A stretch of DNA of 64,000 nucleotides, taken from the IMG/VR virus record IMGVR_UViG_3300020045_005432, positions 7,400 through 71,399 of that record, one strand, 5' to 3'. This DNA is from a virus (taxonomy: Duplodnaviria > Caudoviricetes). Position numbers: made by a program. Positions 3,001 through 6,000 of the stretch are shown here, piece after piece; position 1 is the stretch's first letter, and every line of letters begins with the position of its first letter.

Positions 3001-6000
3001 ATGATTTCAAACAGAAGAACTGCGACATAAATCTTGCGGCCATGTGCTTCTACCCTCCCGATCCGGAATATCCTAAAGAATGGGTTTATGTGGATGGTAA
3101 ACCAACATGCACCAATTTCGTGAAGTGGGACTGGGGTAATGATGGAGACCCAAATGACCCTGATAACCCGAAAGCGCCACCACCTCCACCGGACCCGAAT
3201 CAACTAAACCTATTCCCAATGTATCCGAACGAAACTCATTTTCAGGAGAAAGTCAAACAAATGGAAACCGTATGAAGCACCTAGACGACACCAGTTCAAT
3301 GTGTCCCGAATGCACGGGTAATGGCTGCAAGCAATGTATGGGCACCGGGAATATGCCAAAAGAAGCTCATATTCTGTGGTTGCAAGACATGATTAAAAGA
3401 AAGAACGAACAAATCAAGAACCTATCGGCCAGCCTTGAACTAACCACTGAAAGGGTAATACTGACCGCGAAAGGAGACCCATTGATATGATTTTAGTAAC
3501 TTCACCTTATGAAAAAGTGGCTACGACTGTACTGGTACAATCGGAAGGCGAGGGAAATAAGGGGAATAACGGCCCCTGTTTGGGTGCCAATAGTCATCTA
3601 CCTGATCTTAATCATTTTAGGAATAATCTATAACTACCATGACCGTCAGTAACCTAAACAAAAAAGTTGTCTCCATCCATGACTGGAGCCAATTCAAACT
3701 CCTGCCAAATTACCAAGGGGAAATTCTCCCGGTGAAAGATGAAATATACACCGTTAGGGATGTGGTAACTTACCCTGACAATACCACCGGCATCAGGCTT
3801 GTGGAGATCGTGAATGTCCCCAGACTCTACACCAACGGGATATACGAATGCACCTTTGACGTGCGGCACTTCCGCCCAGTTGACTATGAGTACGGTGAAA
3901 CCATGGCCACCATCCTTGAATCTGAACTAATAGAGGTAGAAAACCAAATATACTAACATACTAAAATCACTAACAATGTTTGTTTTTATGTCAATTAGTT
4001 TAATTTTGTGGTATGGAACGGTTGAAGTGCCCTTTATGCGAGAGAGGAGGTCTTTTACAGGCTAATGGAAGCTCTGTGGTTAAAAAGTCGCTTATACAGT
4101 GCTCAAACGAAAACTACATCCATTGGGCAATAGCAGGGCACCACTTTTTGACCAGAACAGAAGTAAATGTCCGTGAGGAAAATGACTTGATCTTTAGCGG
4201 AAAAGAAGGCAACTTGGTACTGAATTAATTTCCACGCGGAACCTAATAACCGTGTGAACGAATATACTAATATTTCAGTCTGAGCATAACAAGGGTATAG
4301 CATGATGAAATAGGCTATTAGACTGTATCCGGGAAATGAGTCCAGAAGGTAGCTCAGGGAACAACTGGCGGGTGGTTTGCGACCTTGATTTGAAGCGGCT
4401 GGTATCACGCTGATAAACGCAGACGACAACTACCAAAGGTGGCCGGTTTTAATAGAGCCTGGCCATCCCAAATGCCGAAAGGCAACACGTTCTTTGGTAT
4501 ATAAATTATACCGTCCGGTTTGGTAGGCGGTGCCCGAAAGGCGCGAGGAACCCGGTCTGGCGAAGTGAGCAGCAGTACCCAGAGTAAAGCCTACCAAGCA
4601 ACCCTTAAAGAAGGGCGACTCGCTATTAGGGTGGGCATGGTCAGGAGGTTTGAACGTGGGCGATTCTGGCGCTAAGTTGCAACGTTCCCCGAAGAGAAGC
4701 CCGATATGATGCGATGCGGGGCTGGTTTAACGGCCAGCCCCTTTTTTTGAAAACTTATGGGATGGATAAAGAAAAAAGAAAGCCGATGGATTTGCACATG
4801 CAAAAGGATAAACGATTTTGATGAACCAATTTGCAGATTTTGCCAACAGTCTAAACCAGACACCAAATTACCTGGTAGAATTGCAAAAAAGACAGCATAC
4901 GATGAACTCGTTCTCTGGCCAGTCTTCAGTAAGTATATCCGGCTACGAGATTCCGATAAGGACGGTATCGGAAAGTGCTTTACCTGCAAACGTCCTGTTC
5001 ATTGGACTAAAGCCGATTGCGGCCATGGAATTGGTCGTCAGCACAAAGGAGTAAAGTATAACGAGCAAAATAATCACCTTCAATGCAAAAAATGTAACGG
5101 TTTTGAGGGCGGAATGAGGGAAGTTTACAAAGAAGAAATGGACAAGCGCTACGGTGTTGGAACGTGGGATAGAATGCAAGTGGCCAGCAGGCAAATTTCC
5201 AAGTTAGGAAAGGTAGAAGTTGATATGATGGCCGAGGTCTACCAGAAAGAAGTTGAATATTTATTACTTTACAAAACCAATAATCCATGACAACAGAAGC
5301 CCCCTCTACACTAACCCCAAAAGTTCTCACCGATGACGAACGATTTATTGAAACTAAATTGCAGCAGTTCACCATCTCAAAAGAATCACTCAGAGAGATG
5401 GCCGGAAAATATACCGACCTGATAGCACAGGGCAAGGATGCTGATTTAAAGGTAATCTATGTTGCCAGGCAAACCCTTAAAAAGAAACGTACTGAGATAA
5501 CCAACTTCGGAAAGTCATTACGCACGAGTGCCGTAGCGTTTCAAAAAGCCGTCATCGCCAGAGAGGACGAACTAATTGCCGAGATCGAGCCCACGGAGAA
5601 AGCGCTTGAGACAATTGAGGATGGTATCATCGAAGATAAGCGCAAGGCAAAAGAGGAGGCCGACCGGAAAGAGAAACAGCGAATACAGACAATGGTAGAC
5701 CGCCTCAATGCTGTGGAGGCGGGCACCGACATCACCGCTTTGATGGGTATGACAGATGAACAGTTTGAAGATCATTTGAAAGAGGCTACTGCCGAATACC
5801 AGATCGTTCTGGATGCCAGGGCCGCAAAGATGCGATTGGAAGCCGAACAAAAGCAGAAAGAGCAAGATGAGTTCATTAAAAAACAAAACGAACTACAACG
5901 TGAGGCTATCCGGCTCGAAAAAATTAAAAAAGAGCAGGCGGAAACGGCACGGAAACAAAAAGAGGCTCAGGACAAGATTGACGCTGCCAACCGGAAGATT

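Follow-up and report, generated by a model that had tools for sequence, protein, structure and literature searches.

The DNA analysed here, hereafter the window, is a 64,000-nucleotide (nt) stretch of a Caudoviricetes virus, bases 7400–71399 of the 71.4-kb IMG/VR virus record IMGVR_UViG_3300020045_005432. Near its start, a gap at 4229–4756 separates a small open reading frame (ORF) of 71 amino acids (aa; 4013–4228) from a gene for a NinG/Rap-like junction endonuclease (4757–5290, + strand; Pfam PF05766, 1.6e-09; phrog_5034, 2e-19). A first-pass annotation of the sequence had read this gap as an orphan, highly structured RNA of ~515 nt, matching the large phage RNAs ROOL and GOLLD in size and phage context and possibly representing a new family. 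From comparison with related phage sequences, we conclude that the 3′ ~140 nt of the gap (about 4607–4748) is a conserved, structured + strand RNA element comprising a pseudoknotted domain and a hairpin.

On the + strand the gap is non-coding. Each of the three frames between 4200 and 4760 contains 10–11 stop codons, among them all three kinds, which bears out the ORF-free reading of the coding strand and rules out an alternative genetic code. The region is also a GC-richer island, as first described, with a GC fraction of 0.52–0.53 at 4351–4800 against ~0.39–0.47 in the flanks. Six-frame comparison of the gap with its counterpart in a related locus (L002) gave no protein-level signal, and copies of the element are separated by indels of 1–2 nt. 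The idea that the gap is a decayed GroES-domain, peptidoglycan-binding-domain or NinG gene was discarded, as tblastn with the proteins that follow the small ORF elsewhere found no trace of one. On the minus strand, a frame of 208 codons from 4726 to 4103 is open but for a single TAG (4430–4432). The minus-strand ORFs at 4103–4429 and 4430–4597, which a gene caller could report, were rejected for want of conservation in relatives and because they overlap the true small ORF; the ORFs at this place in L002 and in a third locus, L009, have no protein similarity to those of the window or to each other, despite the well-conserved DNA of the 3′ domain.

The folding signal in the gap is local and not whole-length. 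Folded as one unit, the full 522 nt is not exceptional (z −1.58, with 7 of 100 shuffled sequences equal or better) and its reverse strand is at chance level (z −0.12); the segment 4428–4600 reaches z −3.3, matched by none of 200 shuffles. Perfect 8-mer inverted repeats at most 120 nt apart number five, compared with 0.75 in shuffles (p ~0.012). What survives of the proposed ~515-nt structured RNA is its conserved 3′ ~140 nt with the pseudoknot, and neither the whole-length fold nor 4229–4427 (z −0.6) sustains the larger unit.

The 3′ part of the gap is not an orphan, since it has relatives in three further loci, L002, L009 and L020. A weak nhmmer match placed one immediately upstream of NinG in L002, and a metagenome scan with the alignment of the small proteins added L009 and L010, the L010 contig ending inside the linker that precedes the domain. 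A loose motif scan of IMG/VR returned 16 loci, of which our covariance model R1 accepts only L020 (68.8 bits, E about 1e-12), besides the L002 contig, returned as L005; two stricter pattern scans of IMG/VR gave L002 only. One match from a genome-collection scan (L017) was dismissed as chance because it lies inside coding genes of an Anaerolineales metagenome-assembled genome. The domain occurs once each in L002, L009 and L020, always just upstream of a NinG-like gene, and in all four complete members (these three and the window) this gene is the first one 3′ of the element. R1 finds exactly one copy each in G000, G001 (L020) and G004 (L002), none in two complete related genomes and no further copy elsewhere in ~236 kb of collected loci. 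The element is single-copy and accessory, and the total length of the region varies from ~200 nt (L020, after a tRNA) to ~520 nt. DNA searches of isolated phages gave no match to the 522-nt gap or to the window's first 12 kb, and a protein search of isolated phages with NinG gave distant matches only.

The domain itself (4607–4704, ~100 nt) is predicted to consist of a helix, P1, around an H-type pseudoknot with stems S1 and S2. An A-rich linker (AACCC...AAAGAA, 4600–4612), conserved in all members (alignments A7, A8 and A11), leads into the 5′ strand of P1 (GGGC-GA-CUC, 4613–4621), which pairs with 4694–4702 (GAG-AA-GCCC) around a 2 × 2 internal loop (GA/AA) that is read directly from the window sequence. 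The equivalent helices are GGGACUC/GAGUCCC in L002, GGGGUUC/GAACCCC in L009 and GGGGGUUC/GAAUCCCC in L020, two pairs being changed on both sides. Next comes J1 (4622–4639), a conserved unpaired segment of the form UAGGRUGG NNN UGG with invariant columns in alignments A9 and A11. The 5′ strand of S1 (GUCAGGA, 4640–4646) pairs with 4664–4670 (UUCUGGC) and that of S2 (GAACGU, 4652–4657) with 4682–4687 (ACGUUC); because the 3′ strand of S1 lies within the loop of S2, the fold is that of an H-type pseudoknot, whose loops in the window measure 5, 6 and 11 nt. S2 is the GAACGT–ACGTTC helix of the first-pass annotation, here found to be conserved; the pseudoknot had been missed.

Roughly 30 unpaired positions of this architecture are invariant in the four sequences (AGGRUGG..UGG, GCGYUAAG, CCGA/GAGA and AUGAU). 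The GCGYUAAG motif (4669–4676) runs from the end of S1 into loop L3 (4671–4681). The AUGAU/GAUGA motif follows the 3′ strand of P1 and is unpaired (4703–4717) between this helix and the next hairpin; it is kept in all four members and takes the perfect form AUGAUGA in L020. Together with the GA/AA loop of P1 in the window, it may be a kink-turn-like or protein-binding feature.

The aligned members support this fold. In the four-sequence alignment, 91.8% of pair cells are standard pairs, compared with 32–47% when the partners are slid by 1–3 columns; 8 of the 29 pairs are changed on both sides (11 cells), and none of 500 shuffles reaches any of the five measures used. For S1, 94% of cells are paired and three of eight pairs are changed on both sides; the figures for S2 are 92% and two pairs. 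A three-sequence MAFFT alignment behaves alike (91.9% of cells paired against 33–43% when slid, and eight pairs changed on both sides). Run on L002 and L009, RNAalifold independently recovered P1, S1 and a small hairpin, P3; a further helix that it proposed (167–174/212–219) was rejected because it is not formed in the window and clashes with S2. The fairest test of the fold is L020, since the model that retrieved it contains no S1: seven of the eight S1 pairs form in L020, and in three of them both bases differ from the L002 pair. The structure can be assigned to the + strand from several G-U pairs. These helices are kept while the flanking proteins have diverged to 43% identity for the small ORF and 59–67% for NinG. 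Compensatory changes, the lack of which in homologues had been named beforehand as grounds for abandoning the RNA, are thus present in the 3′ domain.

Immediately downstream stands a GC-rich hairpin followed by U7 (4718–4748, + strand), with 10 pairs (seven of them G-C), a 4-nt loop, a folding energy of −19.7 kcal/mol and z −3.5. It has the features of an intrinsic (Rho-independent) terminator, a GC-rich stem-loop directly before a U tract, and the strong terminator noted at first reading is confirmed in this form. A GC-rich hairpin of 9–11 base pairs (bp) and −17 to −24 kcal/mol follows the domain in all four members, with a tail of U7 in the window and weaker U tails elsewhere (UUAUUUUA in L020, UUAUU in L009 and UAUUCG in L002). 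NinG starts 9 nt after the terminator in the window and roughly 25–40 nt after hairpin and tail elsewhere. Reading of the four members revealed no TAnnTTTG between hairpin and NinG; as no promoter motif intervenes, the downstream genes would be reached by read-through. In L002 (2940–2985), L009 (2960–3003) and L020 (8470–8503), a conserved leader of ~20 nt (A-C-A-GACUAACCAAGUC) lies just 5′ of the NinG start and can form a small hairpin; this leader is absent from the window.

Upstream, an exact match to the Bacteroidota promoter pattern (TTTG at −33 and TAnnTTTG at −7 with a spacer of ~19 nt, scanned as TTTG-N17-21-TAnnTTTG) is found on the + strand at 3979–4008 (TTTG, 18-nt spacer, TAATTTTG), the only full match in this region of the window. 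Five matches occur in the window where 2.1 would be expected; those at 3979, 19819 and 26954 are on the + strand where no ORF of at least 150 aa is listed. The motif ends 4 nt 5′ of the ATG of the small ORF, likewise 4 nt in L002 and 3 nt in L009; in L020 it lies upstream of the tRNA, at about 8143–8173. Promoter-to-element distances range from ~190 to ~740 nt across all four members. Transcription from this predicted promoter probably starts at about 4013, and since the motif ends so close to the ATG, the mRNA of the small ORF is probably leaderless. The promoter of the first-pass annotation therefore stands as an exact consensus match, and not as the direct driver of the RNA, because the conserved 71-aa ORF lies between them.

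The 5′ part of the gap is of a different character. Its first ~200 nt (4229–4427) is probably mere spacer, with no demonstrated structure or conservation (z −0.64) and no homologue in phages, IMG/VR or the collected related loci; all four helices originally listed are in the sequence, and the first (4277/4318) falls in a stretch with z −0.4 and is without support. Two of the others close strongly folding modules. Module A (4428–4502, + strand) is closed by a perfect 8-bp helix (4431–4438/4492–4499) around two hairpins, one of them GAAA-capped, and has a minimum free energy of −28.5 kcal/mol (z −3.94, with none of 200 shuffles as good). Module B (4516–4600, + strand; z −2.47) is closed by a perfect 9-bp helix (4520–4528/4589–4597) around a GAAA-type hairpin and an irregular arm. 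The GAAA-capped hairpins reported earlier are indeed there, at ~4473–4482 and 4533–4541 (direct repeat D5). No homologue of either module was found in any searched collection, so the two closing helices are retained as local folds and not as conserved ones. ARAGORN found no tRNA in the window and the modules gave no tRNA-clan match at E ≤ 10. In the 384 nt from 4214 to 4597, TTGGTA/TACCAA occurs five times (window average ~0.9 per kb), the copies in the gap being strands of two RNA-type helices, 53–60 nt apart; a second cluster has three copies within 50 nt at 32255–32305.

The position of module B is a variable slot. L002, L009 and L010 carry other multibranch modules there, each closed by a long helix and each folding better than its own shuffles (z −2.5, −4.3 and −2.4, respectively), with no sequence similarity among the slot modules of different phages. 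L020 has in this place a true tRNA-Met(CAU) at 8257–8330 (ARAGORN; Rfam tRNA, 61 bits), 7 nt upstream of the pseudoknot domain and with its own Bacteroidota-type promoter and no ORF between; by eye it looks like an initiator tRNA, with GGG/CCC in the anticodon stem and a mismatch at the first acceptor pair. The window thus has two folded modules upstream of the domain, at 4428–4502 and 4516–4600, plus ~200 nt of unstructured-looking spacer. The 5′ ~370 nt is not alignable among relatives, and the 5′ parts fail to align even between phages whose small proteins are 76–86% identical.

What might such an element do? Our tentative reading, to which we give a probability of about 40%, is that it acts in cis to control read-through of the terminator into ninG, the gene for a 383-aa protein, recT and the exonuclease gene. 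Transcription would begin at the 3979–4008 promoter, and the element would form part of a long 3′ portion of the leaderless mRNA for the 71-aa Zn-ribbon-like protein. There it could act on the transcribing polymerase or on the hairpin-terminator, and so set the fraction of transcripts that continue into these genes, either by antitermination or by binding a protein or small ligand, as a recognition site or an aptamer. We favour cis control of read-through because the recombination genes have no visible promoter and would depend on passing the hairpin-terminator. The upstream partner of the element is variable (small ORF plus modules, or tRNA), and the downstream partner, NinG, is constant.

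Two known RNAs illustrate how this could work. The put RNAs of phage HK022 (putL and putR) are cis-acting processive antitermination RNAs of two stem-loops, found in lambdoid enterobacterial phages. Like the element they are phage-borne, promoter-proximal and situated between the first small gene and the first terminator of an early operon that continues into replication and recombination genes, and they are compact folded RNAs of ~70–100 nt; that the element would act on its own polymerase only is supposed by analogy. They differ in lacking an H-type pseudoknot of this layout, and no sequence similarity to the element was seen. The eps-associated RNA (EAR) of Bacillales, a conserved RNA of ~120 nt with a pseudoknot, is a processive antitermination element that lies between genes of an operon and promotes terminator read-through. 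It differs in being chromosomal, in Firmicutes and in an exopolysaccharide operon, and no Rfam family matches the element. The element fits this type in position only, in the order promoter, element, terminator and genes with no visible promoter.

Riboswitches that act by termination and protein-dependent attenuators share with the element a P1-closed pseudoknot, many invariant unpaired nucleotides and a terminator-like hairpin within 15–45 nt, followed by genes. The element is unlike riboswitches in that it has no match to a known aptamer and no conserved switching helix that we could find, does not lie at the extreme 5′ end of its transcript and precedes recombination rather than metabolic genes. 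J1 of the window reads AGGGUGG, which resembles the first half of the T-box sequence, a 14-nt motif carried by an antiterminator beside the terminator in T-box leaders; a T-box leader was rejected, as the relatives read AGGAUGG, the motif lies ~90 nt before the terminator and no Rfam T-box model matches. Rfam cmscan gave no match at the element, whether for the whole window at the gathering score, for 3950–4800 at E ≤ 10 or for L002, L009, L010 and L020, and no model of a known riboswitch, T-box, tRNA-like RNA, ribozyme or small RNA matches it. This check, proposed in the first-pass annotation, is consistent with an undescribed family, a status that applies to the 3′ ~140 nt and not to the whole 515 nt. 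We would class the element as a new small family, rare and of a familiar kind, among the structured RNAs of phages.

Several observations weigh against cis control of read-through. A conserved alternative pairing between antiterminator and terminator was not found among the four members: complementarity between the 3′ strand of P1 and the 5′ arm of the terminator amounts to 5–6 bp in the window, L002 and L020 and to 3 bp in L009, and could be explained by the G-rich and C-rich character of the strands. The hairpin tail of L002 (UAUUCG) is poor in U and that of L009 no more than moderately rich, so that the hairpin may not terminate in every member. Closely related NinG genes, in L003 and L004, lack the element, which NinG expression therefore does not require. 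Co-transcription of the element with a tRNA in L020 fits a stable-RNA operon no less well than a leader. Finally, covariation over four sequences, of which L002 and L009 are close to each other, is suggestive and short of statistical proof; no formal covariation statistic could be drawn from such a set, and it is here that the structural claim is weakest.

A bolder form of cis control holds that the domain represents a new class of elongation-control RNA in Bacteroidota phages, being either a factor-independent, put-like polymerase binder or a new aptamer (for a ligand or for an uncharged or processed tRNA). It would gate the step between the first early transcript and the recombination genes, with a 5′ slot whose interchangeable folded modules, a real initiator-like tRNA among them, set processing or folding. 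We consider this proposal unlikely.

The main rival is a stable, processed non-coding RNA (ncRNA), trans-acting or protein-binding, in which the pseudoknot domain and its terminator hairpin would be cut from the primary transcript, 3′ of the tRNA in L020 and of folded modules of tRNA size in the other phages, and would act on host or phage targets; it is a possibility that we hold to be doubtful, and ahead of the other alternatives. In L020 the domain lies 7 nt after a true tRNA-Met in an ORF-free transcript, as is typical of a stable-RNA operon. Conservation peaks at the 3′ end beside the terminator, as in small RNAs derived from 3′ untranslated regions, and the conserved unpaired stretches could be binding sites. 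There is phage precedent in RNAC and RNAD of T4, small RNAs from the tRNA region that are co-transcribed with tRNA genes and whose role is unknown (PMC3014915). The L020 element resembles them in adjoining a tRNA; the window phage itself has none. A stable ncRNA leaves unexplained the strict linkage to NinG and the lack of a promoter for NinG, its defined 3′ end is doubtful in L002, where the hairpin has no U tract, and no target complementarity was identified.

A pseudoknot that merely guards the 5′ end of the ninG–recT mRNA once the upstream tRNA or module has been processed, with the hairpin guarding the 3′ end of the upstream RNA, would make the element a stabiliser or processing insulator that takes no regulatory decision. 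The intercistronic position between a processed RNA (the tRNA of L020) and an mRNA would suit this role, as would the strong hairpin in all four members. Such an outcome seems to us decidedly unlikely, since ~30 invariant unpaired nucleotides across sequences this divergent are rare for simple stabilisers and the window hairpin with its U7 resembles a real terminator.

Still less probable is that the gap has no RNA function, being a non-coding spacer or the scar of a moron insertion that ends in a terminator and is alike through recent common descent, or else a site that acts at the level of DNA, for instance an origin or a protein-binding repeat. The 5′ two thirds of the gap is unconserved, the element is dispensable in relatives and the TTGGTA/TACCAA cluster at 4214–4597 could mark DNA-binding sites; however, the helices are kept through two-sided changes and strand-specific G-U pairs despite diverged flanking proteins, and the TTGGTA copies make up the two strands of RNA-type helices.

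We give almost no credence to a single large ornate RNA that fills the entire ~515 nt, whether as a member of the ROOL/GOLLD class or as a comparable new family. This view drew on a non-coding, GC-richer region with several strongly folding modules and GNRA-type hairpins in a phage setting, with an adjacent tRNA in one relative (L020). ROOL and GOLLD are indeed non-coding, structured RNAs of phages and prophages with occasional tRNA neighbours, but they are 4–6 times larger, and their many junctions and pseudoknots are conserved from end to end (PMC5737381; bioRxiv 10.1101/2024.12.08.627333). The conserved core here is ~100 nt, compared with 580–800 nt, and contains a single pseudoknot, with no set of multistem junctions demonstrated; GOLLD is about 800 nt and the flagged region 520 nt at most. 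The ROOL (RF03087-type) and GOLLD covariance models gave no match in the window at the gathering score or in 3950–4800 at E ≤ 10, and no Rfam model matched the element in the window or its relatives at E ≤ 10. ROOL and GOLLD often lie beside tRNA genes and in prophages; no tRNA gene was detected in the window or the entire 71.4-kb record, and one relative, L020, has a tRNA-Met 7 nt upstream. Conservation is limited to ~140 nt, the 5′ parts are not alignable, 4229–4427 is without folding signal and the length varies from ~200 nt (L020) to ~520 nt. A layout like that of HEARO and IscB, with the RNA guiding NinG, was rejected because NinG genes 65–72% identical to the window and L002 proteins occur without the RNA.

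We know of no antitermination RNA or riboswitch from Bacteroidota phages, and the timing of their gene expression is little understood. If cis control of read-through is correct, the pseudoknot between early promoter and terminator would offer a testable handle on expression control in these phages. The swappable 5′ slot, filled by a tRNA in one phage and by unrelated folded modules elsewhere, is an unusual case of modular RNA evolution. The locus also illustrates that the conserved core of a long, ORF-free and structured gap may be small, and that homologues are needed before helices found by eye are taken to mark a large RNA.

The host phylum appears to be Bacteroidota, as judged by the matches of a structural protein (28174–29562), which are confined to Cellulophaga and Maribacter phages, and by the consensus Bacteroidota promoters in the window. 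The other exact + strand matches to the promoter consensus are at 19819–19849 and 26954–26986. An initial guess of an N4-like phage, prompted by a 3981-aa ORF, was dropped.

The 71-aa ORF (4013–4228, + strand), the first gene of the predicted transcript, encodes a conserved Zn-ribbon-like protein (CPxC...CxNE..H...HFL.RT...LVLN) that is 43% identical to its L002 homologue. A profile of these two proteins gave 45 matches at E ≤ 0.001 among 50%-identity cluster representatives, ~40 of which are 58–89 aa long with CPxC, CxNE..H, HFL.RT and a C-terminal LVLN. The protein has no match in Pfam or PHROG; its AlphaFold model, of moderate confidence (pLDDT 71.6), has four strands and one helix, and a fold search against the PDB returned nothing at E ≤ 0.001. 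Sequence comparison indicates that this ORF is real yet independent of the RNA element, being no part of it and occurring also without it. In the complete relative G002, whose genome lacks the element, the small ORF lies ~6 kb upstream of NinG.

Beyond NinG in the window, the gene order is the 383-aa gene, RecT (6906–7988), the exonuclease (7985–8872) and a gene (8865–9863) whose 332-aa product carries a GroES (Cpn10) domain at its C terminus. In distant loci a GroES-domain gene follows the small ORF directly, with no gap, and L011 has a peptidoglycan-binding-domain gene instead. GroES-domain homologues of 272–300 aa come directly after the small ORF in L013, L014, L015 and L016, and further downstream in L012. 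This arrangement suggests that the small ORF and the GroES-domain gene are a conserved early pair, split here by the RNA and the recombination module.

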